From contig CAZLXA010000002.1 of NCBI GenBank assembly GCA_964563715.1, forward strand, positions 9,467 through 73,466: a stretch of 64,000 nucleotides of DNA. Direction: 5' to 3'. Positions within the stretch are counted from its first letter, which is position 1. Each line of letters begins with the position of its first letter. Positions 22,118 to 63,986 of the stretch are shown in pieces. Source of the stretch: an uncultured Candidatus Saccharibacteria bacterium. GTDB taxonomy: Bacteria > Patescibacteriota > Minisyncoccia > Phycocordibacterales > UBA9973. The notes beneath the pieces are model-generated. The model searched no databases. It saw only the letters and a list, made by a program, of their open reading frames with translations, and was not told where the DNA came from. Both the position numbers and the translations under genes were made by a program.

Positions 22118-22137
22118 TATTTTGGTTGAAGAATTTT

Positions 22138-25101: not shown

Positions 25102-25125
25102 ACAATATAATTTAAAATAAAAACT

Positions 25126-25222: not shown

Positions 25223-25245
25223 GTTTTTATTATTGTAAAAAATAT

Positions 25246-26172: not shown

Positions 26173-26198
26173 AGTTTTATCTTAACACATAAAATAAA

Positions 26199-26310
26199 AA
26201 TCTTAAATAAGTTCTTCTTAAAAGGTTCGGATAATTTCTTGTTAGAAATTTCCTCATTGCTCGCGCCGTCATGCTTGCGCACTCTCTCCTAATAAGACTT
26301 ATTTAAGATT
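26199..26310 (+). repeat. structured ~100-nt repeat, copy B
   Basis: Arms AATCTTAAATAAGTTCTTCTTAAAAGG / CTCCTAATAAGACTTATTTAAGATT, inner hairpin AATTTC-TTGTTA-GAAATT, and shared core TCGCGCCGTC. Confidence 0.75.
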
Positions 26311-26318
26311 TTTAAACT

Positions 26319-27500
26319 TTATTTTTTATTTCTTCGTAAAAATGCAGGGACGGTGTTCCAATCATCTGTGTCGTCGATGAATAAATCATCTTCAATTTTT
26401 TCAGTTTTCTTTATGTAATCAGTATTACCATTTTTTGATTGGTCTTTTGTCACAGCTTGAATTATTTCTTCTTTTGATGAATTTGAAACTGTTGGTTCAA
26501 TTGGTTTATTTTGGCCGATTTGGAAAAGTGAGCGTTTAGGCATATCGGTTGGGAAACCAGTCGCGATGACGGTAACTTTCATTTCACCTTTTTTTAATTT
26601 ATCATCTTGAATTGTTCCAAATATAACTTTGGCATCCTTATCGATTGATTCGGTGATTATCTTGGCAGCATCTTGAATTTCGTGGATAGTTAAATCATCG
26701 CCACCGGAGATTGCAAACAAAACTCCACGGGCCCCAGAAATAGATAAATCAAGAAGGGGGGAGTTAATAGCAGAAAGAGCTGCTTTTTCTGCTCGGCCTT
26801 CACCTGCGGCAATACCAACACCCATTAAAGCCGATCCAGCATCTGACATGACGGCTTTAATATCAGCAAAGTCAACATTGATCATACCGGGAGTTGTAAT
26901 TAATTCTGAGATTCCTTCTACCGCTTGTTTTAGAACTTCATCACACATAGCGAATGCTTGACGGAAGCCTAGGTCTTTTCCTGAAATAACGATTAAGCGA
27001 TCATTTGGAATAACTAAAATAGCATCAACTTCTTTTTCAAGTTCAGCTAATCCCATTTCAGCTATTTTCATTCTCTGATTTCCTTCGAATGAAAATGGTT
27101 TAGTTACAACAGCAACTGTCAGTATTCCTTGTTCTTTAGCAGCTTGAGCCACAATTGGAGCAGCACCTGTTCCAGTACCTCCACCCATTCCACAAGCAAT
27201 AAAAACCATATCAGCCCCCTTAATGACATCTTGGATTTCTGCTTTAGTTTCTTCGGCGGCTCGGCGTCCAACTTCTGGATTCATTCCTGAACCTAATCCT
27301 TTGGTTAGGTTTTTCCCCAAGTGAACCTTTTTTTCAGCAAGTGAATTATGAAGATCCTGAGTATCAGTATTCATAACAATGAATTCGACTCCTCGAACCT
27401 TTGATGTAATCATATGATTAAGCGCGTTTTTACCTGAACCACCGACGCCGATAACTTTAATTCGGGCAAATGATTCAATGTCTGGATTTAATTTAGGCAT
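26319..27500 (-). CDS. ftsZ: cell division protein FtsZ
   Basis: IKVIGVGGSGKNA and GMGGGTGTGAAP tubulin signature. The ATG at 27500 is preferred over the TTG at 27587. Confidence 0.92.
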   Translation of the reverse strand: MPKLNPDIESFARIKVIGVGGSGKNALNHMITSKVRGVEFIVMNTDTQDLHNSLAEKKVHLGKNLTKGLGSGMNPEVGRRAAEETKAEIQDVIKGADMVFIACGMGGGTGTGAAPIVAQAAKEQGILTVAVVTKPFSFEGNQRMKIAEMGLAELEKEVDAILVIPNDRLIVISGKDLGFRQAFAMCDEVLKQAVEGISELITTPGMINVDFADIKAVMSDAGSALMGVGIAAGEGRAEKAALSAINSPLLDLSISGARGVLFAISGGDDLTIHEIQDAAKIITESIDKDAKVIFGTIQDDKLKKGEMKVTVIATGFPTDMPKRSLFQIGQNKPIEPTVSNSSKEEIIQAVTKDQSKNGNTDYIKKTEKIEDDLFIDDTDDWNTVPAFLRRNKK

Positions 27501-27669
27501 ATATTTGTGAGACTTTAGTCTTTCGTTAATAATAAGTTTATGTAAGTACATAATACCAGATATTAGGAAAAAGGAAACATTTGACAATATTTATATATGT
27601 TTTCTTATTATGTCTAAAACAATTTGTATAACAAATTATGCGCCCGAACATTTTATAAAACAAAATGTT

Positions 27670-29885: not shown

Positions 29886-30405
29886 TGATAGTATTATACA
29901 GTACTAAACATTAATAAACAATATTATGGTTAATAAACTGTAGTAATGTTTATATATCTTTTACGAATTAGTTATATTTGTTTAAAAATATTTAATTTGA
30001 TGATTTGAATTAGTTTAAAATAATTATATATTTTAATTCAAATAATACATTTGAAAATAATGTACCATTAAAAAATAAACTTATGAGATTAAATTCTAAA
30101 TTATTTTATATAAAATTATTTATAAACCATAGTATTATTTTTTACATATTATTAATAGAAATATATTGTTAAATATTATTAATTAAGATATAATTTAAAA
30201 TATAATATCATTTATGAATATTTACTCCAATCAAAAACAAATTTAAAAAAATAATTAATATCAAATAATTTTGCTTAACGAAAAAAGTAACTTAATAAAA
30301 CTACCAGATAAAATTCCACCTGAAGATGGAAGCTGGTTCTCAATGTTTCATACGATAGTAAAAGAATACAAATTAAAATTATCAATATTAAAAAAAGAAT
30401 ACAAA

Positions 30406-33400
30406 ATGAAAAATATATTTTTAAAACTAAATAACAAAACTATAAATATTAAAAGTAAGATATTTATAAAAACATTTGCACCAATTTTTGTCGCCTTTTT
30501 AATTTTTACATCTTTTTCTTTCCTCTCCCAAAAAGCATTCGCAGACGATGTTTCACTTAACTGGGGAAAAGGAATAAATGGATATTTATCTTTCGCAAAA
30601 GAATACATAGTAGCTGATTCTACTGGGAATATTTATATTGTGGGAAATTTTACTGGTACAGTTGATTTTGACCCAGGCGGAGGTGTATATAATTTAACCG
30701 CTGTAGGAAGTTATGATGCATATATTTTGAAATTAGATTCATTGGGAAATTTTTTATGGGCGAAAGCAATTGGTGGAGTAGATTATGATGTAGCAAATAT
30801 TATAGCTATTGACTCTACTGGGAATATCGCTGTTGCTGGAAATTTTGCTGGTACAGTTGATTTTGACCCAGATGCTAGTGTGTATAATTTAACCGCTGTA
30901 GGAAGTTATGATGCATATATTTTGAAATTAGATTCATTGGGAAATTTTTTATGGGCGAAAGCAATTGGTGGAGTAGATTATGATGTAGCAAATATTATAG
31001 CTATTGATTCTACTGGGAATATCGCTGTTGCTGGAAAATTTCAAAGTACAGTTGATTTTGACCCAGGTATTGGTGTATATAATTTAACTTCTTCGGGGAG
31101 CAATGATGCCTTTATTTCAAAGTTTGATTCATCGGGAAATTTTATATGGGCAAAAACAATTGGTGGAACAGGTGATGATGTAGCTAACTCTATTGTTGTC
31201 GAAGTAACAACTGGAAATATTTATATAGCTGGAAAATTTCAAAGTACAGTTGATTTTGACCCAGGTATTGGTGTATATAATTTAACTTCTACTTCAAGTG
31301 AGGATGCTTTTTTTGCAAAATTAGATTCTTCTGGAAATTTTGTATGGGCAAGAAGAATAGGTGGGGTAAATAATGATGTTGCTAGTAATATAGCTATTGA
31401 TTCTGCTGGTAATCTGGGTGTATCAGGTAATTTCGCTGGGACAGTTGATTTTGACCCAGGTGTTGGTGTTTATAACTTGAGTGGTTTTAATTCATACAAC
31501 AATCCATTTCTTTCAAAATTTGATTCATCGGGAAATTTTATATGGGCGAAAGTCTTTTACACAACAAATCATGCTTCTGTTGATTCTCTAGTATCAGATG
31601 CAAATAATAACTTTTATTTGGCGGGTTCATTTCAAGGGACCATGGATGCGAATCCTAATTCTGGTACAAAAAATCTTTCTGGTACAAGTCCTTCAAAAAA
31701 TTTTATTATTAAATTAGACACTTTAGGAAATCATATTTGGTCAAATACCTATAATGTAAGTAGAAGTTATATAACCATAGATTTAAGTGGGGATATTTTA
31801 GTTACGGGTCCTTTTTATGGTACAACTGATTTTGATCCAAGCGCTGGTGTCTTTAATTTAACCTCTGTAGGTGTTATAACCAATACTTATATAGTTAAAC
31901 TTTCACCAATTCCTTCAGATTTTATTCCAAATGCATTTACTTTCAACGACCAAATACTAAAAGCTGTAAATACTTCTTATGAATCGAATACTATTACATT
32001 GTCAGGATTAAATGAAGTTGTAGCTATTTCTATATCATCCTGTAGTAGTTCTATTTGTGAATATTCAATAAATAACGGAACATATACTTCAGTTCCTGGT
32101 ATTATAATAAGCGGGGATACTGTAAAGGTCCGACAAAAATCTTCTATCAATGATTCGACCACTACTGATTTAATTTTAAATATAGGTGGAGTTAGTGATA
32201 CATTTTCTGTAACTACAGACGACTGGACTAAACCTTTAATTTCTTCTTTTTCTGTCCCAGCAAAATCAACTTCATATATTATTCCTATAACCAATTTTGT
32301 TGCAACCGATGATCAGTTTGTTGCTGGGTACTTAATCACAGAATCATCAACTACTCCATCTATAAATTCTCCTGATTGGACAGTTACTCCTCCATCAACC
32401 TATCTTGTATTCACAAATGGACTAAAGACACTATATTCTTGGGCAAAGGATAATACAGATAGAATTTCAAACCCAATAAGTGCTCAAATTCTAGTTGATA
32501 CTTCACCTGTGGTTTCTACTTTTACTATTCCGTTAAATTATAATTCTGCAACAGTTCCTATTAATACTTTTAATGTTACTGATAATGTTGGTGTTGCAGG
32601 TTATATGGTTACAGAAAATCTGACTCCACCAAATATAAATGATTCAAGATGGACTGAGACTGCTCCCTCTTCGTATACGTTTGAAAATATAAATGACTCA
32701 GTACCGAGTACCTGGAATCAAAGGACAGCAGCTACTTTTTCAACATCATGGCGTACCATCGCTTCTTCGGCCGATGGGAATAAATTGGCTGCTGCTATTG
32801 GACAAATCGGTGGAGCTAGTAATTGTAGTTCACCAAGTTGTTATATATATACATCAACTGATGCTGGAAATACTTGGACCGCACGAACTAGTGCTGGCTC
32901 CCGTAATTGGTCAGGTATCGCTTCATCATCAGATGGAACAAAATTAGTAGCAGTAATTGGTGGGGATTATATTACCGGATACGTATATACTTCAATAGAT
33001 AGTGGAGCGACTTGGGTAGCCAGGACTGGAAATGGTTCTCTAAGATGGCACGATGTTACTTCGTCTTCGGATGGAACTAAATTGGCTGCCATAACAGGAG
33101 GGCGATATTATAATGGATCAATATATACTTCAATAAATAGTGGGGAAACATGGACAGCACAAGCTGGAGCAGGTTCACGTTATTGGATGTCAATAGCTTC
33201 ATCATCTGATGGTACAAAATTAGTAGCAAATCCCGGATATGGTTATATTTACACTTCAAATAATAGTGGGGTGACTTGGATAGAGAGAACAAGTTCTGGT
33301 ATACGTTCTTGGGTAGACGTGGCGTCTTCTGCTGATGGATTAAAATTAGTAGCGACTTCAGGAAATGGTTATATTTATACTTCAAATGATGGTGGGGCTA

Positions 33401-36400
33401 CATGGATAGAGAAAACAAGTTCTGGTATACGTAGCTGGGGCCAGGTTGCATCTTCGTCGGACGGAGTAAGGCTAATTGCGGCAACGAGTAATTCGGGATA
33501 TATATATTACTCAAGTGACTCGGGGACAACGTGGCTTGAGCAAGCATCAATGGGATTAAAGGAACGTGCTGGTGTTGCTTCCTCTTCTGATGGAACTAAA
33601 ATAGCTATCGGAGATAGATATGGAGATATATATACTTCCAAATTTGGGAATGAACTTCATGGTTGGGCTAAAGATTCAGAAGGGTTGGTGTCAAGTTCTA
33701 CAATATATTCAAATGATACAGTGATAATTGATTTTAATACTCCAGTAGTTACAGCATTTTCAATACCCACTAATTCATCTTCATTAACTGTTCCGATTAC
33801 AACTTTTACAGCGACCGATAATGTTGGAGTGACTGGATACATACTAACCGAAAGTCCTACAGTTCCACCGTCTAATGATATTGGTTGGACGACTGATGCT
33901 CCGGCGACATATACATTTTCTTCGTACGGGAATAAGACTTTATATGCCTGGGTAAAAGATGGGAATAATAGTATTTCAAATCCACTTTCAGCTTCAATAT
34001 TTCTTAATTCCGCTCCGTCTGTAACCTCTTTTGTAATTAATTCTGATTATAATTCTTTTACTATTCCAATCTCGACTTTCACTGCAACTGATGATACTCA
34101 AGTTACTGGATATAAAATAACGGAGAATAACGATGTACCGTCCCCATTTGATAATGGTTGGAGTGACACAGCTCCCACAAATTATACTTTTAGTATACAA
34201 ACAGATATTTCTCCTAAAAATTGGGTGCAAAAAACGAGTGATGCCAATAGGAGTTGGCAGGCAATAGCTTCCTCTTCTGATGGAACAAAAATTGTTGCAG
34301 TAGTAGGTGCAGATTTTAATTCTGGTTACATTTATACTTCAGATAATAGTGGAACTACATGGATAGAAAGAACAAATGCGGGACTACGTAAGTGGAAAAC
34401 TGTTGCTTCTTCTTCAGACGGAACAAAATTAGTAGCTGGTGCATATGACGGTTATGTGTATACTTCTGATGACTCGGGTGCTACCTGGATAGAAAGACAA
34501 CCTGAAGTTGGGAGAAAATTTAATTTTTACCGTCCAATCGTTTCTTCAGCCAATGGAACAAAATTGGCATTTGTTGAAAACATGTGTGTAAACCAAGGTA
34601 GATTATATACATCGACAGATGGTGGAGATACATGGACAAATAAAATTATTTCAGGTTCGCAAATTATTTCCTATTCGTCTGATGGTAATATATTGATTGC
34701 AGGTGATAATTATGGTGGTACAGGATGTACCAGTGGAACTAATGGGGGTTATATTTCTACTTCAACTGATAATGGTAATACTTGGACACAAAGAACCAGT
34801 GCTGGTTTACGAAAATGGAGTGCGGTGGCTTCTTCTTCAGACGGAACAAAACTATTTGCTACAGCTGATAAAGAAATTAATAGTCCTGGATATATATACA
34901 CATCTATCGACGGAGGGGTAACTTGGTTAGAAAGAGTATCGGCAGGCTCACATGAATGGAAATCAATTATTTCCTCATCGGATGGAACAAAATTAGTAGC
35001 TCAAGTTAGAGGGCAGAATGGTGCAGGAGATATTTATTCTTCGACAGACGGTGGAATTAATTGGAGTCTAAGAAATAGTAATAATTCATGGTATGGAGTG
35101 TCATTATCCGCTGATGGAAATAAATTAGCTACTATTGTTAACGGTGGATATATTTATACTTCAACTGCCATTTATACCGCCGAGGGTGCAAAAACTTTAT
35201 ATGCTTGGGCTAAAGATGAAAATGGTGGTGTTTCGAATCCATCTACCGGGCAAATAGTTGTCCATGTAAATCCTCCCACGTCCACAATTAATCCCCTTTG
35301 TGACATTTCAGAAAATAGATGTACTGCTTCAGGAATAGTTTCTAGTCCACAGCAAGTTTATGCTGTTCAATTAATTTCTGGTATTTCTTCAGAAGCTATT
35401 TCCGATATTGAAATTTCGATAAAAGATGATACTTTGGATAAATGGTTTTCGAACGGAGTATTTTCTTCAGATGTTGAAATATATTCTACAATAACTAATA
35501 CGACGGAGTGGTCATATGGTACAAAAACTTGGGCATATGATTTATCTACACTTCCTCTAACTATTGGTAATGTTTATAAACTTAATGTAAAGGCTACAGA
35601 TACATTTGGTAGTGTTGAAAACCCTGTTTCGACAACATCTTTCGTTTTTTCGAGTTTAACACTAGATAACGCCGCTCCTGTTATTACTCTGACCGGGTTA
35701 AATCCGATGAACGTAACACTAGGTCAATCATATTCTGAGCCGGGGGCAGATGCTGTGGATGCTATTAGTGGCCCACGTCCGGTAAGTATTTCTGGTACTG
35801 TTAACAATAATGCTCTTGGGTCCTATACTATTACGTATACCGCGACAGATATGACAGGGAATATTGGAACAGCTACGAGAACAGTAAATATAATTCCATC
35901 TCCAACAGTGTCTTTTGATACTGTTTCTAATAACGGAGATGAAAGTGCGAGTCCTTATGATGCTATGGTAAGTATTTCACGTGCTGATGCTCAAAATACA
36001 ACTGTTGAATATATTGTCTCAGGAACAACAACCAATGCCGATCATACACTTGTCAGTGGAACTGTTACTTTCTTGGCAGGAGAAGTATCGCAAGAGATAT
36101 CCATTCCAATAATTGACGACATTCTAAAAGAATTAAATGAGACAGTAATCTTGACCCTTTCGAATCCTATTAATGGGATATTAGGAACTAATGTGTCATT
36201 TACTTACACAATTAATGATAATGATATTGCGTCAGGAATAGAATTTTCAACTGGCGAATCCTCTAACCTAGAAAGTCTTAATATGGTAGATATTCCGATT
36301 TCATTAGCTAGTATCTCTGGTACAAACACGACAATTGATTATACTATTTCTGGAACAGCGACAAGTGGAGATGATTATTACTTAGATGAAGGGACAGCAA

Positions 36401-39195
36401 CTATTATTGCAGGAGAAACAACAACGAATATTAATATTGAGATTATAGATGATATTCTGAAGGAAGAAAATGAGACTGTTATTATTGCATTATCTAATCC
36501 TACAAATTCAACTCTCGGATCAAATAGCACTTATACTTATACCATTACAGATGATGATATCTTACCCTCAATTGGTTTTGATGTTGTCTCAAGTGAAGGA
36601 GATGAAAATGTTACAACCGTAAATATTCCAGTTTCAATATCCTCTCCTTATGCGGAAGATGTTACTTTCACTTATTCGGCGACAGACGGGACCGCCACGG
36701 GTGGAGATGTTGACTACTCACTTGTAAGTGGAACTGGTACAATAATAGCAGGGGAAACTTCAACTGAAATAACTATCGTTATATTTGACGATGATATTTC
36801 TGAAGAAACTGAAACATTATTAGTTACTATTTCAAACCCTGTTAATGCAACACTTGGAAAGAACATTAGTCATATTTATTCTATCTTAGATAATGAAATT
36901 TCAATTACAAGTGTGACTGGAAATAATATTAAAGCAACAAGTGCAAAAATAGTTTGGACTACAGCAGATTTTACTGATGGATTAATAGAATATGGAATTA
37001 TTGCTCCAGGGAATGAAGGAGCATATAATCTTCAAAAATCTAATGAAGATAAAATATTAGACCATAGTTTCTATTTAGGAAATTTAACTCCTGAAACAAC
37101 TTATTATTTTAGAACAACTTCTACTAATCTAAATAATGAGACGACAGTTTTTGAGTCAGAATTTGCAACAACACCTGGACCAGTAATTAGCGATGTATTA
37201 TCAAGTGAAATAACTGATACTACCGTACTAATTACTTGGACAACAGACATTCCTACGACTTCACAAGTAAATTATGGAATAGATATAAATCTCGCGGATT
37301 TTGATAGGTCGGGCTCTGATGAATTAGTTACAACCCACTCAGTTTTACTTACAAACCTTGCTTCGGCTAATACTTATTACTATTTAGTGGCTGGAATTGA
37401 TGCTGATACAAATGAAACGGAAGATGCAAATAATGGTGATTATTATATTTTTATTACAGGGGATGACCAAACTCCTCCAATACTATCTGAAATATCAGTT
37501 CCTATTATAACTTCAACTCAAGCAGCAATTGTTTGGTTGTCCAATGAGCCGGTTGATGGTAAGGTAATGTATGGAACAAATGTAGGAGTTTATGAAAATG
37601 AGACTGATTTAATATTAACACCACTCACAAATCATTTAGCAATAACGGGAGAATTGTCGGAGACAACAACTTATTTCTATGTAGTGGAATCTTCAGATGC
37701 AAATGGAAATACAACTACTTCTGAAGAACACTCCTTTGTAACACAAGCGCCAGGGGAAGTCATTGTTTATAGAGGCGGAGGTAGTGGAATAATGGGTGTA
37801 GCTCAAGAAATGTATGACTTACTCCTTAATGAAAATAAAATTTACAAAGATAGAATTGGGTCTATTGAAAATGAGCCAGTAATTTCAAATATTCAAATTT
37901 CTAATGTAACGGCTTTTGGAGCCACAATTTCATTTGAAACAGATAAAGACACAATAGGATTTATAGATTATGATAGAAATACAAACTATAGTCTTTTGGC
38001 GGCGGATAAAAATTGGTCCAAAAGTCATTCGATTATTTTACATGGTCTAAATTTTGGAACAGATTATTTTTTCAAAATTTCAGCCATGAATAAATCTAAT
38101 CTAAGAAGTGTTTCCGAAGAGCAAAACTTTAAAACGAAATTTTTTAGTGAGAATATTGATCAGTTAACAAAAGTTGAAAACATTGAGCAATTTCAGAAAG
38201 AGTTAGAGTCAACTATTGAGTCAATATTACCTTCGATTGTACCCCCATTTATAGATAAACCAGTTGTTTCTGATATTACCGAGAATAGTGCAATTATTTC
38301 ATTTCGTACAAATGTTAGTGCTTATCCAATAGTTAGCTTCACTCCAGAAAGTTCTTATGACGCAAACAAAGAAAATTCTTACAATGGTGAAATATCAGAT
38401 ACAACAAAAAAAGGTATATCCCATAAACTTAATTTAGTTAATCTAAAACCTAATACAAAGTATCATTTCATTGTAAAAGCTTTCTCCTTACCACAAGTTA
38501 TAGGTAAATCAGATGATTTCACTTTTATGACCAAGGCTTCTAAAATTCAAGGATCAATTATTGACATTAAAAAAGATTCATTTATTGTTGTCTGGAACAC
38601 AGATGAACCAACATCATCAATTGTAGAGTATAAGAATATAAATTCTGGCAGAGTATCTCGTATTGCAGATAGTACAATAAATAGTTCCCACTCACTTAAG
38701 ATTGAAAACCTTACTCCTGGTACTCAATACCAAGTTACAATTTCTGGAATAAATAGTAAGGGTAATATTATAGAGGGAGGAAGTCCTCTTAATATTAAAA
38801 CTTCAACAGATAATATTCCTCCTACAATTTCAGGTATAAAAGTTGATAGTTCTTTAGTTGCAGGAAGAGAAGATAAAGTTCAAACAATAATTTCATGGCA
38901 GACTGATGAACCTTCTACCTCTGCTGTCTATTATGAAGAGGGTTCTGGTTCGATAGATTCACCTCTCTCAAGTAAACAAGAGGACTCTGAATTAACTAAA
39001 AATCATGTTGTTATATTAAATTCCCTAAAGCCTGGCACGGTTTATAGATTTTCTGTTGAATCTATGGATGGGGCAGATAATATAAACAAACAACCAGTTA
39101 GAACCATAATTACACCTAAAAAATCAGAATCAATTATTGATGTAATCTTTAAAAATTTTGATGACACATTTAATTTTATTAATAATGTTAGATAA
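30406..39195 (+). CDS. giant secreted multidomain surface protein (SBBP repeats, 2 Asp-box/BNR propellers, Ig-like repeats, DUF5011, 3 Calx-beta, 7 FN3-like)
   Basis: Signal peptide at the ATG at 30406 (…FSFLSQKAFA). GNxxVAGxFxGTVDFDPG repeats, 12 SxDxGxTW Asp-boxes in two blocks, DDIxKExNET Calx-beta motifs and repeated IxWxTDxP...YG FN3-like units. Confidence 0.85.
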   Translation: MKNIFLKLNNKTINIKSKIFIKTFAPIFVAFLIFTSFSFLSQKAFADDVSLNWGKGINGYLSFAKEYIVADSTGNIYIVGNFTGTVDFDPGGGVYNLTAVGSYDAYILKLDSLGNFLWAKAIGGVDYDVANIIAIDSTGNIAVAGNFAGTVDFDPDASVYNLTAVGSYDAYILKLDSLGNFLWAKAIGGVDYDVANIIAIDSTGNIAVAGKFQSTVDFDPGIGVYNLTSSGSNDAFISKFDSSGNFIWAKTIGGTGDDVANSIVVEVTTGNIYIAGKFQSTVDFDPGIGVYNLTSTSSEDAFFAKLDSSGNFVWARRIGGVNNDVASNIAIDSAGNLGVSGNFAGTVDFDPGVGVYNLSGFNSYNNPFLSKFDSSGNFIWAKVFYTTNHASVDSLVSDANNNFYLAGSFQGTMDANPNSGTKNLSGTSPSKNFIIKLDTLGNHIWSNTYNVSRSYITIDLSGDILVTGPFYGTTDFDPSAGVFNLTSVGVITNTYIVKLSPIPSDFIPNAFTFNDQILKAVNTSYESNTITLSGLNEVVAISISSCSSSICEYSINNGTYTSVPGIIISGDTVKVRQKSSINDSTTTDLILNIGGVSDTFSVTTDDWTKPLISSFSVPAKSTSYIIPITNFVATDDQFVAGYLITESSTTPSINSPDWTVTPPSTYLVFTNGLKTLYSWAKDNTDRISNPISAQILVDTSPVVSTFTIPLNYNSATVPINTFNVTDNVGVAGYMVTENLTPPNINDSRWTETAPSSYTFENINDSVPSTWNQRTAATFSTSWRTIASSADGNKLAAAIGQIGGASNCSSPSCYIYTSTDAGNTWTARTSAGSRNWSGIASSSDGTKLVAVIGGDYITGYVYTSIDSGATWVARTGNGSLRWHDVTSSSDGTKLAAITGGRYYNGSIYTSINSGETWTAQAGAGSRYWMSIASSSDGTKLVANPGYGYIYTSNNSGVTWIERTSSGIRSWVDVASSADGLKLVATSGNGYIYTSNDGGATWIEKTSSGIRSWGQVASSSDGVRLIAATSNSGYIYYSSDSGTTWLEQASMGLKERAGVASSSDGTKIAIGDRYGDIYTSKFGNELHGWAKDSEGLVSSSTIYSNDTVIIDFNTPVVTAFSIPTNSSSLTVPITTFTATDNVGVTGYILTESPTVPPSNDIGWTTDAPATYTFSSYGNKTLYAWVKDGNNSISNPLSASIFLNSAPSVTSFVINSDYNSFTIPISTFTATDDTQVTGYKITENNDVPSPFDNGWSDTAPTNYTFSIQTDISPKNWVQKTSDANRSWQAIASSSDGTKIVAVVGADFNSGYIYTSDNSGTTWIERTNAGLRKWKTVASSSDGTKLVAGAYDGYVYTSDDSGATWIERQPEVGRKFNFYRPIVSSANGTKLAFVENMCVNQGRLYTSTDGGDTWTNKIISGSQIISYSSDGNILIAGDNYGGTGCTSGTNGGYISTSTDNGNTWTQRTSAGLRKWSAVASSSDGTKLFATADKEINSPGYIYTSIDGGVTWLERVSAGSHEWKSIISSSDGTKLVAQVRGQNGAGDIYSSTDGGINWSLRNSNNSWYGVSLSADGNKLATIVNGGYIYTSTAIYTAEGAKTLYAWAKDENGGVSNPSTGQIVVHVNPPTSTINPLCDISENRCTASGIVSSPQQVYAVQLISGISSEAISDIEISIKDDTLDKWFSNGVFSSDVEIYSTITNTTEWSYGTKTWAYDLSTLPLTIGNVYKLNVKATDTFGSVENPVSTTSFVFSSLTLDNAAPVITLTGLNPMNVTLGQSYSEPGADAVDAISGPRPVSISGTVNNNALGSYTITYTATDMTGNIGTATRTVNIIPSPTVSFDTVSNNGDESASPYDAMVSISRADAQNTTVEYIVSGTTTNADHTLVSGTVTFLAGEVSQEISIPIIDDILKELNETVILTLSNPINGILGTNVSFTYTINDNDIASGIEFSTGESSNLESLNMVDIPISLASISGTNTTIDYTISGTATSGDDYYLDEGTATIIAGETTTNINIEIIDDILKEENETVIIALSNPTNSTLGSNSTYTYTITDDDILPSIGFDVVSSEGDENVTTVNIPVSISSPYAEDVTFTYSATDGTATGGDVDYSLVSGTGTIIAGETSTEITIVIFDDDISEETETLLVTISNPVNATLGKNISHIYSILDNEISITSVTGNNIKATSAKIVWTTADFTDGLIEYGIIAPGNEGAYNLQKSNEDKILDHSFYLGNLTPETTYYFRTTSTNLNNETTVFESEFATTPGPVISDVLSSEITDTTVLITWTTDIPTTSQVNYGIDINLADFDRSGSDELVTTHSVLLTNLASANTYYYLVAGIDADTNETEDANNGDYYIFITGDDQTPPILSEISVPIITSTQAAIVWLSNEPVDGKVMYGTNVGVYENETDLILTPLTNHLAITGELSETTTYFYVVESSDANGNTTTSEEHSFVTQAPGEVIVYRGGGSGIMGVAQEMYDLLLNENKIYKDRIGSIENEPVISNIQISNVTAFGATISFETDKDTIGFIDYDRNTNYSLLAADKNWSKSHSIILHGLNFGTDYFFKISAMNKSNLRSVSEEQNFKTKFFSENIDQLTKVENIEQFQKELESTIESILPSIVPPFIDKPVVSDITENSAIISFRTNVSAYPIVSFTPESSYDANKENSYNGEISDTTKKGISHKLNLVNLKPNTKYHFIVKAFSLPQVIGKSDDFTFMTKASKIQGSIIDIKKDSFIVVWNTDEPTSSIVEYKNINSGRVSRIADSTINSSHSLKIENLTPGTQYQVTISGINSKGNIIEGGSPLNIKTSTDNIPPTISGIKVDSSLVAGREDKVQTIISWQTDEPSTSAVYYEEGSGSIDSPLSSKQEDSELTKNHVVILNSLKPGTVYRFSVESMDGADNINKQPVRTIITPKKSESIIDVIFKNFDDTFNFINNVR
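30691..31080 (+). repeat. near-perfect 195-bp tandem duplication inside the giant gene (one SBBP unit)
   Basis: 30691-30838 matches 30886-31033 with a single mismatch seen (GACTCT vs GATTCT). Period is 195 nt, or 65 codons. Confidence 0.85.
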
Positions 39196-54883: not shown

Positions 54884-55795
54884 ATGATTTTAAAAACAAT
54901 TAAACAAAAAGAATATGAATTACTTGATTGTGGTCAAGGGGAAAAACTAGAAAGATATGGGTCGTATGTTTTACGACGACCAGACCCGGAGGCACTTTGG
55001 ATAAAATCAAAAAGTAATGATTTTTGGGAGAAAGCTGAATTAAAATTTATTAGAACTGGAATTAAAACCAAGTGGATAGTTAAAGAAGGTACACCAAAGA
55101 ATTGGGATATTTCATTTGGGGATTTAAATTTTTCAATTAGACCAACATCTTTCAAACATACCGGCCTTTTCCCTGAACAATTACCAAATTGGCAATGGAT
55201 GGAAGAGATAATTACTAGTGTGAGCGGAAAAAGGCCTTGCCTTAAGGGAGCCCAAGGCAAGGCCTTAAGGAGCGAACCCGTCTCTGTCTTAAATCTTTTT
55301 GGCTATACAGGAGGAGCAACACTTGCTTGTGCTAAAGCTGGAGCCGAAGTTTGTCATGTTGATGGCTCCAAAACGGCAGTTGAATGGGCTCGTATTAATG
55401 CGAAATTATCAGGTTTGGAAGATGACCCAATTCGTTGGATTGTTGAAGATGTTTTGGTTTTTTTAAAAAGAGAAATTAAAAGAGGAAGAAAATATGATGC
55501 AATTATTATGGACCCACCGTCATTTGGCCATGGACCAAAAGATGAATTATGGAAAATAGAAGAGCATTTTCTTATATTAATGGAACTTTGTCGTGAGCTA
55601 CTTTCTGATGACCCACTTTTTGTTATTATTAATGGTTATACAGCCGGATATTCAGCCATTGCTTACGAAAATAACTTAAAAGATATGATGAAAGATCATA
55701 CAGGGCAAATTGAAATTGGTGAATTGGCCATAGAACAAACAGACAGTGACAGATTGCTTCCTTGTGGTATATTTGCAAGGTGGAGTACGAATTAG
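54884..55795 (+). CDS. class I SAM-dependent rRNA methyltransferase (RlmI/YwbD-like)
   Basis: VLNLFGYTGGATLACAKAGA motif I and IIMDPPSFG motif IV. Confidence 0.7.
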   Translation: MILKTIKQKEYELLDCGQGEKLERYGSYVLRRPDPEALWIKSKSNDFWEKAELKFIRTGIKTKWIVKEGTPKNWDISFGDLNFSIRPTSFKHTGLFPEQLPNWQWMEEIITSVSGKRPCLKGAQGKALRSEPVSVLNLFGYTGGATLACAKAGAEVCHVDGSKTAVEWARINAKLSGLEDDPIRWIVEDVLVFLKREIKRGRKYDAIIMDPPSFGHGPKDELWKIEEHFLILMELCRELLSDDPLFVIINGYTAGYSAIAYENNLKDMMKDHTGQIEIGELAIEQTDSDRLLPCGIFARWSTN

Positions 55796-55836
55796 GTTCT
55801 AGTAATTAGTTTCTAGTAATTAGTGTAAATTGTGAA

Positions 55837-55940
55837 ATAAAATAAGTCTTTGAAAAATGCCTTGCGCAGAGCGACTGGCTCGAGCAGAGCAAAAACCTAG
55901 CAAGGTTTTATGTGTGCATTTTGAGAAGAGCTTATTTTAT
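55837..55940 (-). repeat. structured ~100-nt repeat, copy C (inverted relative to A and B)
   Basis: The reverse complement aligns with copies A and B. Arms ATAAAATAAGCTCTTCTCAAAATGC / GCATTTTTCAAAGACTTATTTTAT, inner hairpin AAAACC-TTGCTA-GGTTTT. Confidence 0.7.
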
Positions 55941-55958
55941 GAAGCACTTTTTAAATAA

Positions 55959-57122
55959 ATGAATTTAAATAAAAAAACAGTTTTTGTGGGAGTTTCAGGA
56001 GGAGTAGATTCGGCTGTTTCTGCAGCATTACTTAAAGACCAAGGCTACAATGTTATTGGGGTTTTTATCCGAACCTGGACACCTGATTTCATAGAATGTA
56101 CTTGGCGTGATGAAAGACGAGATGCCATGCGAGTTTGCGCTCATTTAGAAATTCCATTTTTAGAATGTGATGCAGAAGATGAATACAAAAAAGGCGTGGC
56201 TGATTATATGATAGAAGAATATAAAAAGGGTAATACTCCTAATCCTGATGTGATGTGTAATCGAGAAGTTAAATTTGGGGTCTTTTTGAATTTTGCCAAA
56301 GAGAGGGGAGCCGATTTTATTGCTACCGGACACTACGCTCGCAATAAGCGAGCTAGTAGAAAGTTGAAAGTAGAAAGTTATAAAGTAAAGAATTTAAAAA
56401 AAATTTATGAACTTGATGAACCTTATGAACTTTTAACTGGGTGCGATAGCACTAAAGACCAAGTGTATTTTTTGTGGACACTTACTCAAGATGATTTAGC
56501 TCATACACTTTTCCCGATTGGTCATTTAAATAAGATTGAAGTGCGCAAATTAGCTATCAAATATAAAATCCCAAATGCTAAAAAAAAAGACAGCCAAGGA
56601 GTTTGTTTCTTAGGACCACTTGATATGAAAGATTTTTTGAAACATTATATTGAAACAAAAAAAGGTGATGTGCTTGATATTGAAGGAAAAATTATTGGCA
56701 GTCATGATGGAGCAGTATTTTTCACATTGGGTGAAAGACATGGATTTACTATTTTTAAACATTCTGAAAAAGATAAGCCTTTATATATTATTGTCAAAGA
56801 CTTAGAAAAAAATACGGTTACGGTATCTACTAAAAATAATTTACCTCTCCCAACCCTCCCCTTATTAAAGGGAGGGCAAGGTTGGGGTCTAAATATGGTA
56901 AACACCAATTGGATTTCTCGTATCCCTGAAAAAGACAAAATTTATACAGCTCAGATTCGTTATCATGGCGAATTACTAAACTGTCAAATTTCTAGAAGTT
57001 TTGGAAGTCCGACTTCCAAAAATATGGAAATTATTTTTGATAAGGAGGTTTTAGTTAATAAAGGCCAATCAATAGTTATATATGATAGCGATATTTGCCT
57101 CGGTGGAGGTGTTGTGGAATAA
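55959..57122 (+). CDS. mnmA: tRNA 2-thiouridine(34) synthase MnmA
   Basis: PP-loop VGVSGGVDSAV, ATGHYAR, KDQVYFL, DSQGVCFLG. Confidence 0.9.
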   Translation: MNLNKKTVFVGVSGGVDSAVSAALLKDQGYNVIGVFIRTWTPDFIECTWRDERRDAMRVCAHLEIPFLECDAEDEYKKGVADYMIEEYKKGNTPNPDVMCNREVKFGVFLNFAKERGADFIATGHYARNKRASRKLKVESYKVKNLKKIYELDEPYELLTGCDSTKDQVYFLWTLTQDDLAHTLFPIGHLNKIEVRKLAIKYKIPNAKKKDSQGVCFLGPLDMKDFLKHYIETKKGDVLDIEGKIIGSHDGAVFFTLGERHGFTIFKHSEKDKPLYIIVKDLEKNTVTVSTKNNLPLPTLPLLKGGQGWGLNMVNTNWISRIPEKDKIYTAQIRYHGELLNCQISRSFGSPTSKNMEIIFDKEVLVNKGQSIVIYDSDICLGGGVVE

Positions 57123-59683: not shown

Positions 59684-60862
59684 ATGGGATTTTTATTTGG
59701 AAATAAAAAAGAAAAACTAATTGCAATTTTTGATATTGGTTCTGGTAGTGTTGTGGGAGCAATTGTTAAAATACCTAATGATGGTATTGGAATACCAGTC
59801 ATTATAAAATCGATTGATACTGAAATTAAATTTCAAGAAAATTTTGATTTCAATTTATTTATAAATGATATGGTCACAGCTTTACACGCAACAGCTTCTT
59901 CTTTATATAACAAAAAAGTTGGTGCTCCCGATGAAATATATTGTGTCTTAGCTTCTCCGTGGTATTTATCTGAAACTAGAACAATTAAATTATCTCGCGA
60001 TAAACAATTTGTTTTTAATAAAAAATTAGCAAATGAATTAATTCAAAAAGAAGTTGCAAATTTAGCTACAGTCTATGGGGACAAATACAATACCGATGAA
60101 AGTGCTCCAGAAATGATTGAACAACACACTATGGCTGTCGCTCTTAATGGTTACTCCATAAATCAGCCGTTAGGAATTAAATGTAATTCTCTTAAAATGG
60201 AAATGATAATTTCTTTGTCGCCCAAATTATGTTTAGATAAAATTAGACAAACCTTATCAAAAACATTTCATCATACTAAAGTCAATTTCTCATCTTTTAC
60301 TCTAATGTCATATTTAGCTGTGCGCGATAAATATATTAAACAGGATTCTTATCTGTTATTGGATATTAGAGGAGAAATTACCGATGTCGGAATTGTGACA
60401 AAAGGTGTATTGAAGGCGGTATTATCTTTTCCTTTTGGCAAAAAAGCTTTCTTTAAATATATGTGTACAAAAATGGAAATTGAATTACGCGATGCCAAGG
60501 AGTTATTTAAACTATATTCTGATGATAATTTATCGGAAGAATTTAAGAAAAAAGTTATTCCTCTTTTTGATTCAATAAAAAATTCATGGAGTGAAGCTTT
60601 TCGACAGTGTATTAACACACTTCCTCGTTCACTTATTCTCCCAAATACGATTTTCCTAACAGCTGATGATGATATTAAAAATTGGTTTACCGGATTACTT
60701 CAAACTGATGAATATATTAAATCAATGGTTTCTGATCATAAATGTAGTGTTATAACATTAGATGGGCCTGATTTTTTAAATATGTGTGATGTTAAAGATG
60801 GTATTTGTAATCCATTTTTAATGATCGAATCAATCGCCATTATGAGAAAAATTGGTAAATAA
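59684..60862 (+). CDS. actin-fold ATPase-like protein (FtsA/PilM-like), divergent
   Basis: Phosphate-1-like IAIFDIGSGSVVGAIV and phosphate-2-like LLLDIRGEITDVGIV. Confidence 0.45.
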   Translation: MGFLFGNKKEKLIAIFDIGSGSVVGAIVKIPNDGIGIPVIIKSIDTEIKFQENFDFNLFINDMVTALHATASSLYNKKVGAPDEIYCVLASPWYLSETRTIKLSRDKQFVFNKKLANELIQKEVANLATVYGDKYNTDESAPEMIEQHTMAVALNGYSINQPLGIKCNSLKMEMIISLSPKLCLDKIRQTLSKTFHHTKVNFSSFTLMSYLAVRDKYIKQDSYLLLDIRGEITDVGIVTKGVLKAVLSFPFGKKAFFKYMCTKMEIELRDAKELFKLYSDDNLSEEFKKKVIPLFDSIKNSWSEAFRQCINTLPRSLILPNTIFLTADDDIKNWFTGLLQTDEYIKSMVSDHKCSVITLDGPDFLNMCDVKDGICNPFLMIESIAIMRKIGK

Positions 60863-62228
60863 AATGGTTAAAAGAATTTTAGAGGATATTAAAATAGTAA
60901 AAAGGCCAGAATCTTATAAACAAGAAGATAGACAGCTTGATTTACCAACTAAAGAAATAAAAAAAGTTGAACAAGATTATCAGGGAGAAATTAAAAAATC
61001 AAAAATCGACGAATATTTTAGAACTAAAATTTCGAGCGAAAAAAGAATTAACAGAACACCACAAATAAAAAAAGAAAAAAAGATAATTAGTAGACCTGTG
61101 GTTATTATTTTTCTTATTTGTCTTATATTGGGTGCTATTTATTGGGCGGGAAATTTTTTTCAAAAAGCTAATATTGAAATAACTTCAAAACATCAGCCTA
61201 TTTCTTATAATAAGAAGAATTTTACTTCAACCGTAGACGATGATGTAAATACTATTGATTTTGAAATAATGATTGTTTCTGACCAAAAAATAAAAAATTT
61301 TACATTAACAGAACCGGAAAGTGTTTCTATTAAATCAACAGGGATCGTAACTTTTTATAACGAATTTGCAACAACCCCACAAAAATTATTAGCTGGAACA
61401 TTTTTGGCTGATGATACGGGTAAAACATATAAAACTAATGAAATAATAACAATACCGGGATATATACTGGATAATAATAAAAAAATAATTCCCGGCCAAG
61501 CAACTGCCAATATTAGCGCTTTTCTACCAGGTGAAGCTTATAATGGTTCACCCGAAGATTTTTATATAACCTCTTTTAAAAATACTACTAAGTATAATAA
61601 AATATACGCAAAAATAAAGACACCACTAGAAGGTGGGATGAGTGGTATGGTTTATACCTTAAATGAAGATGATAAAACAAATATTAAAACTTTTGCTGAA
61701 ACGATATTTAAAAATGATTTATTGGGAAAAGTTAATGCATTGGTTCCGCCTGGATATATTTTATATCCAAATGCTACGAATTTTTCATATAAAATCAAAG
61801 ATAATGCTATGTCAAAAACATCTGAAGCTGAAATCATAATCGAAGGAGAATTATCAGTAATTTTACTAAATGAAAAAAGCTTGGTTAAAAATATAATTAA
61901 AGTTTCACTTCCTGAAATTACAAAAGAAGAAATAAATGAAATTAAAATTTTAAATATAAATAAGCTTGTGTTTAACTTTTCAAATGTGAATCAATTAATT
62001 ACGAAAGATTTAAATACAATTTCTTTTTCATTAACAGGGGATATTGAGGCTCTTTGGGTACCAAATACAGAAATATTAAAATCGAAATTATTGGGAGTGC
62101 ATAAAGATAATGTCTTGGCAATTTTTCGTCAAGACCCAGGAATATCATCAGCTTTAGTGAAATTATTTCCTCCATGGCAAAAATATATTCCTAGTGATAT
62201 ATCTAAAATAAATATAATCTTAAATTAA
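60852..62228 (+). CDS. bitopic membrane protein (458 aa), overlapping the upstream actin-like gene
   Basis: Basic ~90-aa N-terminus, a single TM helix (VVIIFLICLILGAIYWAG), and a large extracytoplasmic domain. 11-nt overlap with the previous ORF. Confidence 0.5.
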   Translation: MVNKMVKRILEDIKIVKRPESYKQEDRQLDLPTKEIKKVEQDYQGEIKKSKIDEYFRTKISSEKRINRTPQIKKEKKIISRPVVIIFLICLILGAIYWAGNFFQKANIEITSKHQPISYNKKNFTSTVDDDVNTIDFEIMIVSDQKIKNFTLTEPESVSIKSTGIVTFYNEFATTPQKLLAGTFLADDTGKTYKTNEIITIPGYILDNNKKIIPGQATANISAFLPGEAYNGSPEDFYITSFKNTTKYNKIYAKIKTPLEGGMSGMVYTLNEDDKTNIKTFAETIFKNDLLGKVNALVPPGYILYPNATNFSYKIKDNAMSKTSEAEIIIEGELSVILLNEKSLVKNIIKVSLPEITKEEINEIKILNINKLVFNFSNVNQLITKDLNTISFSLTGDIEALWVPNTEILKSKLLGVHKDNVLAIFRQDPGISSALVKLFPPWQKYIPSDISKINIILN

Positions 62229-62450
62229 TTACTTATAAGTTTGGCTTCTAAGTGGTATTGACTATATCGCATAAATGTGCTACTATACAATGATAAGTAG
62301 TTCTTTGATAATTTCGTCTTTTTCATTGGAAACAGTGTTTTAAATATCAATTTTTTGGTATATAGAATACTGTTTCCAAAAATTTCATTTTGGTTCAGTA
62401 AAAATTGAATAATTTAACTCATAAATAATTAACAATTTAAACCTTACCTT

Positions 62451-63986
62451 ATGAAAACCAAATTTTTCTTTTTGACGATCATCGTGGCTTTATGCTTTTC
62501 CACTCAAATAAAAGCACAACAAATTAATTCAGTTGAAACATATATTCAAAGCGTTGGAGTTTCCGGCGCTATGATTAGTGTTACTGCCTACGGTAACACA
62601 ACATACTATTGCTCAATCGTTTATGGCCATGGTGGCTACGGATTAACAGAATTTGAAACGGGAACATATTTTTTGGACCCCAATGTTGAGTGGACGATTC
62701 CGCTTGAAAATTTACTACCAGGTACAACTTACGTGTATATGGTAAAAGTATCCTGGGATAACTACAATTACACTATAACCAGTAGTATCGAAAATTTTTC
62801 GACTTGCGAATGTCCCATGTATGCTAGCTTACAAAATACTTCAAGCACTCAATGCAGTGCTCAACTCGAAGTTATTGAACCGAATGACCCACTTTATAGC
62901 TATCAATGGCTACGAAATGGAGAAATAATTCCTGATGCAAACGATGCTGAGTATAATGCAACTACATCCGGAAATTATTCATTCAGGGCAAGTAGTCTCT
63001 ACTGTGATGTTTCTTCAGATCCAGTATATTTCGAAATCTCAAAGCCTGAATTAATTCTCGTTGCTGATAGTAATTTATGCGCAGGACAAAATACTATGGT
63101 ATTTGCGGGAAATTATGATGAATATCTATGGGAACCTACTAATTTGTTCGATGATCCACATTCGTCACAAACAGTTTTCCGTCCGATTGAAAGCACTGTT
63201 ATAATATTAACAGGCATTTCTAATGGATGTACAGAAGTAAAACAGCAATTCATAGCTATTCATGAACTGCCCCAATTGGGAATATCTTTTCTTGATTCAG
63301 TTTGTATTGAATCAAATGAGCCAATTCAATTGATCGGTTTGCCGTTAGGAGGGACTTTTTTGGGACAAGGAGTTTTTAATCATGGAAATGATTATGCTAC
63401 ATTTAATGCCAACCAGGTAATTTCTTCCGGTATTTACCCAATAGAGTACGTATATCATGACCAATACGGTTGTGGTGGTAGTATTTTCAAACAAATTGTG
63501 GTTACAGAAGAACCCGTTGTGAATGAAATGCTTTCAAAGAACAACAATCTGTATGTTTATGGAATATTCCCGAATCAAATTTTGATTTCTATTAATGGGC
63601 AAAACTATTATTCCTTTCAGCAAAATGAAACGGAGGCAATATTTCCTAACGTGCCAGTTTCAAATGGTGACTATGTTACCATTATGGCAATGGGAACGCA
63701 TGGGTGTTTTATAACCAAAGAATTCCGTTACGGGCTTGGTTATAACGAGGCTGAAAAAGATGAAATTGAAATGTATCCGAATCCATTTTCGGATATCCTT
63801 ACGGTAGAAATACCGGATGGCAAGTATGAAGTTGAAGTTATTGATTTGACTGGCAATATTGCCCAAATGAAATCTGCAACTAGAAATTTCATAATAGAAC
63901 GAAACAATCTTCCTGTTGGTATATACTACTTGAGAATTATTTCAAGTGAAAAAATACTAACCAAAAAAATCCAGGTAATTAATTAA
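62451..63986 (+). CDS. secreted protein with T9SS type-A C-terminal sorting domain
   Basis: Signal peptide ending FSTQIKAQQ, Ig-like YQWLRNGEIIPDANDAEYNATTSGNYSF, and C-terminal MYPNPFSDILTVEI...LPVGIYYLRI...KKIQVIN. Confidence 0.75.
   Translation: MKTKFFFLTIIVALCFSTQIKAQQINSVETYIQSVGVSGAMISVTAYGNTTYYCSIVYGHGGYGLTEFETGTYFLDPNVEWTIPLENLLPGTTYVYMVKVSWDNYNYTITSSIENFSTCECPMYASLQNTSSTQCSAQLEVIEPNDPLYSYQWLRNGEIIPDANDAEYNATTSGNYSFRASSLYCDVSSDPVYFEISKPELILVADSNLCAGQNTMVFAGNYDEYLWEPTNLFDDPHSSQTVFRPIESTVIILTGISNGCTEVKQQFIAIHELPQLGISFLDSVCIESNEPIQLIGLPLGGTFLGQGVFNHGNDYATFNANQVISSGIYPIEYVYHDQYGCGGSIFKQIVVTEEPVVNEMLSKNNNLYVYGIFPNQILISINGQNYYSFQQNETEAIFPNVPVSNGDYVTIMAMGTHGCFITKEFRYGLGYNEAEKDEIEMYPNPFSDILTVEIPDGKYEVEVIDLTGNIAQMKSATRNFIIERNNLPVGIYYLRIISSEKILTKKIQVIN

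Follow-up and report, generated by a model that had tools for sequence, protein, structure and literature searches.

The 163-nucleotide (nt) spacer between an S-adenosylmethionine (SAM)-methyltransferase gene (54884-55795, + strand) and mnmA (55959-57122, +) on contig CAZLXA010000002.1, from an uncultured Candidatus Saccharibacteria bacterium, is filled by a long hairpin that belongs to a dispersed family of structured repeats. We refer to the whole 64,000-nt stretch that was analysed (G+C 32%) as the window. The hairpin in question, copy C, extends over 55829-55948 (+) and scores 103.6 bits (E 4e-24) with the covariance model R1; its fold has a predicted energy of -35.9 kcal/mol (z -5.05 relative to dinucleotide shuffles). 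Copy A (25116-25231, - strand; R1 115.1 bits; -44.9 kcal/mol, z -5.74) fills a 144-nt spacer between a convergent pair, a nucleotidyltransferase gene (24277-25101, +) and a thioredoxin-reductase-like gene (25246-26172, -). Copy B (26196-26313, -; 99.5 bits; -29.9 kcal/mol) lies between ftsZ (26319-27587, -) and the thioredoxin-reductase-like gene, is co-directional with both and ends 24 nt ahead of the downstream start codon. The adjoining genes were identified with Pfam. All three copies are predicted to form one long helix closing a three-way junction, and their folds are much more stable than those of dinucleotide-shuffled sequences (z -3.3 to -6.1). A covariance-model scan of the whole window with filters off returned exactly these three copies; the next matches were the opposite strand of A at 34 bits and, at the best other site, 25 bits.

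An earlier note had described the 104 bases at 55837-55940 as a third, inverted copy of the repeat, and the sequence is as it reported. Read on the + strand as in that note, A and B (~25113-25228 and ~26192-26307) were found through the inner hairpin, and the reverse complement of 55837-55940 can be aligned with both over its full length at a mean column identity of 74%. The inner hairpins are also as described (AAAACC-TTGCTA-GGTTTT in C, AATTTC-TTGCTA-GAAATT in A and AATTTC-TTGTTA-GAAATT in B), with stem positions 3, 4 and 5 changed on both arms and pairing retained (A-T to T-A twice, and C-G to T-A). The inner closing helix covaries too, being AAAATGC/GCATTTT in C and AAAGGGG/CCCCTTT in A.

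Further members of the family were sought with an exact pattern in one genome per GTDB species, which returned 50 loci. Twelve are real structured homologues, all in metagenome-assembled genomes (MAGs) of the candidate phyla radiation (CPR) labelled Candidatus Paceibacterota, Nomurabacteria, 'Saccharibacteria' or 'uncultured bacterium'; 38 fall in unrelated taxa and match by chance. On metagenome contigs, a second pattern with a different anchor matched at least 120 stretches. With R1 we found 21 copies in the window and the GTDB loci, at least 91 in the first 80 loci of the metagenome matches listed and at least 53 in the rest, and two more distinct copies near RayT genes (see below). The family thus comprises at least about 160 R1 copies at 43 bits or more, found only in CPR MAGs and metagenomes, and about 40 of them were picked by neither search pattern. 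Phage genomes and IMG/VR yielded no real copy; the two pattern matches there fail model R1, as do loci L053, L065, L082, L104 and L118. Searched over the window, Rfam 15 gave no family at its gathering threshold for the element, and the best matches by E-value on A, B and C are at chance level and far below thresholds, with none even at E ~0.1. Reading the CUU-N-GA...CGAAA segment as a hammerhead was rejected, as the invariant G5 and A6 are absent and no Rfam model matches; 5S rRNA, SRP RNA, Y RNA and riboswitches were excluded by the Rfam result together with the multi-copy, random-orientation behaviour of the repeat. The literature searched on repeats in CPR bacteria and Parcubacteria, on structured RNAs and on RAYT/REPIN systems in Patescibacteria contained no description of the element, which is apparently a repeat family of Paceibacteria-type CPR bacteria new to the literature.

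For covariation counts we used 90 distinct copies from outside the window, with 500 shuffles and with the structure slid by 1-3 columns as a control. The family fold is Y-shaped, with a long closing helix (P1) and two hairpins (P2 and P3) at a three-way junction; the lower part of P2 (P2a) aligned inconsistently between subfamilies and was excluded from the counted structure. We observed pairing in 94.2% of cells, compared with 76.1% in shuffled alignments and at most 54.6% when the structure was slid. Both sides have changed in 35 of 36 pairs (21.3 shuffled; at most 23 slid) and in 566 individual cells (155.5 shuffled; at most 109 slid). None of the 500 shuffles matches the observed covariation on any measure, and covariation is present in all three helices. 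The paired changes proposed in the earlier note are therefore statistically robust in a larger alignment, in which the arms also keep their complementarity. Its proposal that CTTGCTAG is a conserved loop fails. Taken from copies not chosen by loop sequence, the consensus is A-[G/C/A]-[C/U]-A, in which only the two A's are invariant (A75 and A78, each in 90 of 90 copies), and the P3 loop is closed by U-A in 47 copies and by C-G in 43. The apparent conservation of CTTGCTAG partly reflects the chance agreement of three copies and partly the first search pattern, which imposed it. No loop-loop covariation was found between P2 and P3.

The strand read in the earlier note was the wrong one; the informative strand is + for C and - for A and B. 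The paired columns of the 90 copies contain, on this strand, 59 G-U/U-G against 28 A-C/C-A combinations and 109 G-A/A-G against 7 C-U/U-C combinations, and copy C is read here on the strand bearing this asymmetry. The same strand, the complement of the orientation read before, folds better in 15 of 15 copies (summed minimum free energy -658.7 vs -574.3 kcal/mol); for A, B and C the values are -44.9, -29.9 and -35.9 kcal/mol, against -41.9, -23.7 and -28.4 for the other strand. As single-stranded DNA (ssDNA) both strands also fold stably, so the asymmetry indicates a single strand, not specifically RNA.

The 5' arm of P1 in copy C (55837-55851, +) pairs through AATAAAATAAG with 55931-55940 and through TCTT(T) with 55925-55929. 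Across the family the outer part of this arm varies and AGTCTT is near-invariant (columns 9-22 with 105-119). Outer P1 is locus-specific, reaches a median of 16 base pairs (bp) beyond the conserved base (range 10-20 bp), is A-rich in its 5' arm and U-rich in its 3' arm, and often carries a GA or GAA internal loop. The conserved base consists of AUAG-UCUU paired with AAGA-G(bulged)-CUAU, and above it lies an A-G mismatch (in the AUC/GAG subfamily) or a UGA/GAG internal loop, the invariant GAG being faced by AUC or UGA depending on subfamily; the internal loop of copy C is (T)GA at 55852-55853 facing GA(G) at 55923-55925. Inner P1, formed in C by AAAATGC (55854-55860, +) and GCATTTT (55916-55922), is a covarying helix of 6-8 bp in which G-C, A-U and U-A alternate (columns 26-31 with 96-101). 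The three junction strands are CUU, GA(G) and GU.

Hairpin P2 of copy C (55862-55887, +) reads TTGC / GCA loop / GAGC - GACTG - GCTC / GA / GCAG. Its general layout is a lower stem of 3-4 bp, an internal loop containing G-A, an upper 4-bp stem and a G-W-C-K(G) loop; the upper stem, this G-W-C-K loop and the 3' GA are the conserved features. All four pairs of columns 42-46 with 51-54 covary (one of them is G-C in 35, U-A in 31 and C-G in 16 copies), G47 and C49 are present in 89 of 90 copies, and the GA at columns 55-56 in 82 of 90. Hairpin P3 (55889-55913, +; GCAAAAACCT - AGCA - AGGTTTT.TGT), the inner hairpin of the earlier note, has 8-10 bp and an A-N-Y-A tetraloop closed by a Y-R pair; all 10 of its pairs covary, with pairing in 96.5% of cells. 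The junction GT and the 3' arms of P1 (GCATTTT, GAG and AAGA) follow at 55914-55930 (+), the bulged G lying at 55930. Conservation within the family is highest along the 3' strand, TTGAGAAGAGCT, with the junction GU in 88 and the bulged G in 79 of 90 copies. As the metagenome search pattern contained none of them, the conservation of GU, GA and the loop A's is unbiased. The covariance-model core is ~115 nt long, the whole hairpin has a median of ~120 nt, and whole insertions measure 130-165 nt. The combination expected of a structured RNA, a fold supported by covariation together with conserved unpaired nucleotides, is present.

Copies fill tiny spacers between housekeeping genes, including ftsZ, trxB-like, mnmA, dnaK, HU, nusA, recA, clpP, RNase H and uvrD-like genes. 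They often begin 0-15 nt from a stop codon, and some overlap or supply it; no enrichment of transposases was found among the adjoining genes. A relation between copy orientation and the transcription of the neighbours, raised in the earlier note, is not borne out. Co-directional junctions hold 28 sense and 32 antisense copies, with 19 more between convergent and 9 between divergent genes. Occupancy is 20% of convergent, 13% of co-directional and 9% of divergent junctions (p = 0.054), and the distribution over replication strands as judged by GC skew (21 vs 34) shows no significant bias. We saw no consistent promoter or U-tract in the flanks. A terminator scan found none at A, B or C and no consistent downstream T-run; the short G+C-rich stem-loop followed by a U-tract that defines an intrinsic terminator is not seen in the element, and ordinary hairpin and T-run terminators stand beside several copies (L006, L079, L102 and L038). 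Nor do the copies have the consistent orientation, position or own promoter and terminator of a gene-like or cis-regulatory RNA.

Two other features were noted in the same spacers. Short A/T-rich tandem motifs recur beside elements and in some empty junctions, in the window at 55800-55826 as TAGTAATTAG-TTTC-TAGTAATTAG, and elsewhere as repeated TTAAGAATTAATAATT or TTCTTAATTC (L115 7843-7872, L098 ~2900-2950, and L146 upstream of 1947-2063). A TATAAT box ~7 nt ahead of an ATG (L132 1066-1082 and L134 7485-7501) suggests leaderless transcription; L134 has a 164-nt insertion directly upstream of that box.

By clustering the flanking proteins we identified 26 orthologous junctions at which one or more loci have a copy. 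At about half there is also a locus with no detected copy, some with gaps of 0-20 nt, and 6 of the 26 hold copies in opposite orientations. The junction of copy A carries a flipped copy in L033 and L076 and is empty, with a 0-nt gap, in L081; that of copy B is occupied in L033, L076 and L081 and holds a flipped copy in L120. Filled and empty sites differ by clean indels of the whole hairpin (130-165 nt vs 0-16 nt). Neither a consistent target duplication in 15 filled/empty pairs (one possible TGTAA repeat was seen, in L033/L081) nor terminal inverted repeats beyond the hairpin arms were found in such pairs, although short duplications could be obscured, as the flanks are only 70-95% identical. 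Two near-identical copies occupy different junctions of contig L071, one of which is empty in L125, and the resemblance between the two copies breaks off precisely where the extended hairpin ends. In L101 and L126 the flanks are 98% and 94% identical, yet the copies, which sit directly after the HU terminator, belong to different subfamilies and have opposite orientations. At many orthologous junctions the copies are no more alike than random pairs (0.46-0.77). Inverted doublets and clusters are common, with up to five copies in 12 kb. Insertion polymorphism between related genomes, as expected of miniature inverted-repeat transposable elements (MITEs), is therefore evident.

Some of the same junctions hold a second long-hairpin family of ~105 nt (L084 4330-4440, +; L078 4450-4564; L056 11770-11872, -). 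Its sole similarity to the three-way-junction element is at the base, where AGUCCU pairs with AGGA-G(bulged)-CU (AGUCYU/ARGA-G-CU across both families) below an internal loop rich in purines. If a common protein recognised the base, one would expect just such a combination of a shared asymmetric base and differing distal parts. A third repeat consists of outer inverted repeats, AAGCGGAACAAATTAT and ATAATTTGTGTAGCTT, around a GTCTGGCTCCTCGTCCTCCCTCATCCGAGGAC core (L120 724-870, L078 6860-6975, L084 1916-2031 and L088 1509-1734). The three-way-junction element is nested in the outer arms of this third repeat at L075 2179-2355 and L085 ~200-400, in a mosaic resembling bacterial interspersed mosaic elements (BIMEs).

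Resident copies can be retained at a site. At the junction between the methyltransferase gene and mnmA, the window, L032 and L070 hold orthologous copies with the same locus-specific outer stem. These are 0.85-0.92 identical, while fourfold-degenerate sites in both flanking genes are at 0.30-0.43 identity, which is saturation; this points to selection on the element and not to ancestry only. The differences among these copies are largely compensatory (UUGC/GCAG to UUAC/GUAG, and AAAACC/GGUUUU to AAAUCU/AGAUUU). A pair at the dnaK junction (L045/L055) is 0.90 identical, compared with a median of 0.66 for random pairs of the family (5-95%: 0.54-0.77). Such comparisons indicate that some resident copies are under strong purifying selection. 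Copies A, B and C are mutually only 0.63-0.67 identical, at the random-pair baseline, so the family is old in this genome. The argument of the earlier note from covariation to selection on the fold thus stands in part: selection beyond shared ancestry is supported, but its target may be mobilisation competence. Polymorphism in insertion and deletion, orientation and subfamily at orthologous junctions shows that the element does not behave as a structured gene fixed in place, and selection on the fold may therefore serve such competence as much as a host function.

A possible source of mobility is encoded at 4133-4861 (+) in the window by a RayT-like homologue of Y1/HUH transposases (PF01797, 27.3 bits vs a cut-off of 23) with the motifs YHIYNRG, NHFHFIL and GYVNKNYLIH, which came to light when part of the open reading frames (ORFs) of the window were annotated with Pfam. 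Homologues with 60-89% identity occur in Candidatus Nomurabacteria/Paceibacterota, some of them named 'REP element-mobilizing transposase RayT' by JGI. The gene order S1 protein, RayT, Lactamase_B_3 ... GyrA is kept in three genomes, and one homologue shares a 362-kb contig with copies of the element in L033. The gene is apparently single-copy, and this pattern of conservation is the signature of a domesticated, vertically inherited RAYT. We infer that it is a candidate trans-acting mobiliser of the element.

The RayT-like genes carry a hairpin of their own, of 23 nt (AGATAG-NGGNN-N-NNCCN-CTATCT), in three copies per gene, one ~50 nt upstream, one in frame within the coding sequence (CDS) and one over the stop codon; its inner stem covaries between genomes. 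In the window these lie at 4077-4106, 4318-4347 and 4835-4864, with the CDS copy encoding SQIAALPLSG, and the same triplet is found at L173 9948-10715, L175 9948-10691 and L177 9947-10718. In L161 (4690-5490), a RayT homologue of 45% identity bears another hairpin in the corresponding three positions. The 23-nt hairpin is essentially not dispersed, with one extra copy in 1.09 Mb. The AUAG...CUAU foot that it has in common with the three-way-junction element is only a lead.

Taken together, the family is dispersed, structured, palindromic and asymmetric between strands, and it undergoes insertion, deletion and replacement in random orientation and with no target duplication; its fold and specific unpaired nucleotides are kept by selection. 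The reading that we prefer, and to which we give about half of our confidence, is that it is a non-autonomous element of a REP (repetitive extragenic palindromic)/REPIN-like or MITE-like kind that moves as a folded single strand. The element would spread in this form, most plausibly as ssDNA handled by an HUH/Y1 enzyme for which the conserved RayT homologue is the candidate, and the bulged G and purine mismatches would mark the substrate strand. It would land in very short spacers at gene ends, and there the resident copy would become part of transcripts of either sense, forming a long hairpin in an untranslated region (UTR) or intercistronic spacer; some copies, such as C, may then be retained for long periods. 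The second family, which shares only the bulged-G base, is as expected of families served by one enzyme.

Several observations weigh against this reading. A separate 23-nt hairpin (AGATAG...CTATCT) flanks the RayT gene, and the three-way-junction element never does, its nearest copy being 1-20 kb away (window, L173, L175 and L177); the linkage that defines REPIN-RAYT systems is thus missing and no enzyme is tied to the element. Nothing points to recent proliferation in this genome, as the copies in the window are no more alike than random pairs. An excess of G-U and G-A confined to one strand suits RNA as well as ssDNA. Conservation at the site of copy C indicates purifying selection at the level of the host, which would not be predicted for a purely selfish element.

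Among known systems, those whose behaviour the element matches best are the REP/REPIN repeats and those of the ERIC/BOX/Correia type, although its host group is unexpected. As with REP/BIME and REPIN-RAYT systems, copies are extragenic, at gene ends and in either orientation; their hairpins show compensatory changes, they are found singly, as inverted doublets or in clusters, and they persist for long periods at loci and lack target duplications, and the genome here carries one vertically inherited RayT-type Y1 transposase. Published work describes RAYTs as typically single-copy (PMC5581495), REPINs as non-autonomous and mobilised by RAYTs (PMC3337134) and REPINs as vertically inherited (10.1101/2022.05.22.493013). 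There are also differences from REPINs. The arms AUAGUCUUAUCAAAGGGG and CCCUUUGAGAAGAGCUAU are mutually inverted, but neither is itself a palindromic REP. The 'spacer' of the element is ~58 nt with two conserved hairpins, whereas a REPIN consists of two short REPs around a short spacer; it is the internal base and the three-way junction with its unpaired bases that are conserved, and the outermost stem that varies. A different hairpin flanks the RayT gene here, copies from one genome share ~65% identity and do not form a tight sequence cloud (the L071 pair is near-identical), and the host has an ultra-small CPR genome.

ERIC/IRU, BOX, RUP and Correia (CREE) repeats are imperfect palindromes or MITEs of 100-150 nt in transcribed intergenic DNA. 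The element resembles them in size, in its long imperfect hairpin, in the use of both orientations, in presence or absence between relatives and in its modular or mosaic neighbours. Unlike these repeats and other MITEs, it has no conserved terminal inverted repeats at its true ends, where the outermost 10-20 bp are locus-specific. It also differs from the ERIC/BOX/RUP/Correia group in lacking a TA or other target duplication and in the covariation of its internal hairpins and the conservation of its junction nucleotides, and no parent insertion sequence (IS) was found. The subterminal hairpins of IS200/IS605 elements and the attC sites of integrons are similar in that structure is kept more than sequence, extrahelical bases and mismatches distinguish the strands, and terminal inverted repeats and target duplications are absent; attC sites can bear branched variable terminal structures. 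In contrast to both, the element has no adjacent tnpA/tnpB or intI, forms no co-oriented cassette array and is dispersed singly among housekeeping genes. By inspection, its outer stems have no GTTRRRY/RYYYAAC core sites, and no integron integrase was found among the window ORFs scanned (those in 30271-53938 and 59684-63986 lying outside the scan).

A possible, if tentative, alternative is that the element strand is a host RNA module, either a protein-binding or catalytic RNA or a processing or stability signal that punctuates operons, with recognition through the conserved junction and bulged-G base and with mobility incidental or ancient. The purifying selection at orthologous junctions whose fourfold sites are saturated is in keeping with this, as are the covariation of every helix and the conserved unpaired nucleotides. 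So are the excess of G-U over A-C and, far larger, of G-A over C-U on one strand, the preference of RNA folding for that strand by 84 kcal/mol over 15 copies, and the position of C and B, which are co-directional and 13-24 nt upstream of start codons. Three-way-junction ribozymes and riboswitches in Rfam likewise have covariation in all helices, a tandem G-A helix extension near the junction and conserved junction nucleotides. However, the hammerhead core CUGANGA...GAAA is absent from the element, which has CUU-N-GA instead, and no Rfam family matches. A cis-regulatory RNA would not be oriented at random relative to genes, and at co-directional junctions antisense copies (32) are as frequent as sense (28). 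In places (L079, and L038 at 6753) the placement of terminators and promoters leaves only the other strand transcribed. The absence of a conserved promoter or U-tract, and turnover or replacement at the same junction between genomes with 94-98% identical flanks, also tell against a host RNA module.

We think it unlikely that only structure matters, in either orientation, the hairpin terminating transcription in both directions, serving as an RNase III site or blocking 3' exonucleases at gene ends and its conserved sequence reflecting mere shared ancestry. Elements do abut stop codons, the gradient of occupancy from convergent to divergent junctions runs in the appropriate direction, both strands are stable as RNA, and copy A is the sole structure between two convergent genes. 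But the empty terminator scan, the lack of a G+C-rich stem followed by a U-run and the ordinary terminators that adjoin several copies are difficult to reconcile with such a role; the preference among junction types is weak, and the invariant unpaired nucleotides, bulged G and strand asymmetry are left unexplained.

Paired changes can also arise with no selection on the fold. Template switching between the arms of a palindrome during replication (quasipalindrome correction) is an established mutational mechanism for inverted repeats, and it can yield paired changes in DNA palindromes independently of their orientation. The outer stems are suggestive in this respect, being locus-specific yet near perfect over up to 20 bp, and at two loci (L126 and L056) flanking or coding sequence takes part in the outermost pairs. 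As an account of the family as a whole we consider this very unlikely: template switching would leave no bulged G, A-G mismatch or G-U pairs, yet these are kept family-wide and in the second family, and it would neither conserve loops and junction nucleotides nor explain 85-92% identity at saturated divergence. Least probable of all is a double-stranded DNA (dsDNA) site or cruciform to which a nucleoid or topology protein would bind, much as some REP/BIME clusters are bound by gyrase and IHF. Intergenic position, orientation independence and palindromic symmetry would fit, but dsDNA recognition needs no intra-strand complementarity of variable sequence and leaves the strand-asymmetric mismatches unexplained, and the analysis yielded no evidence for a protein of this kind.

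Beyond the preferred reading of a mobile element that spreads as a folded strand, there is a more far-reaching proposition, which we regard as rather doubtful: that the element strand represents a new class of small functional RNA in CPR bacteria, or else that the domesticated RayT homologue has the element as its true dispersed substrate. As an RNA, the strand might be a three-way-junction module that processes itself in the manner of a ribozyme or recruits proteins, and that has been copied to many sites in the genome and kept as 'punctuation' at operon junctions; this would amount to a new, widespread structured RNA class in organisms that are not yet culturable. If the link to RayT holds, long-lived REPIN-RAYT replicators would extend to a very different bacterial branch, with a different and more elaborate folded substrate, and if the element is the RayT substrate it would represent the first REPIN-RAYT-like partnership of replicator and host in ultra-reduced genomes. 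Few known genomes are as small and as densely packed as those of CPR/Patescibacteria, so persistent structured repeats at housekeeping junctions are unexpected in them. Either way, R1 allows annotators to mask or label these ~120-nt spacers, and the filled and empty junctions can be used as markers for strain-level comparison.

Several other features of the window were noted. A likely genomic island occupies ~9000-23000 and includes four T4SS-pilin-like genes (10328-12159), a serine recombinase gene (14566-16275, -) abutting a tRNA (14532-14603), a DNA methylase gene (19120-19944), an AbiU2/HEPN gene (20505-21152) and numerous ORFs that lack a Pfam match. Inside an apparent integrated element, flanked by unannotated ORFs, is a LOOT RNA (Rfam RF03000) at 17328-17449 (+), scoring 70.9 bits vs a gathering score of 46.4. 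A giant ORF of 2974 aa (30271-39195, +) has internal tandem repeats with periods of 195-198 nt at 30622-31551 and 126-141 nt at 32749-35132. Two terminator-like hairpins (AAAAAACCTGTCGCAAGATAGGTC TTTTCATTT), 90% identical and 935 nt apart at 21331-21372 and 22266-22307, enclose an ORF at 21581-22117, and a related G+C-rich hairpin with a CTTG loop is located at 22938-22967.

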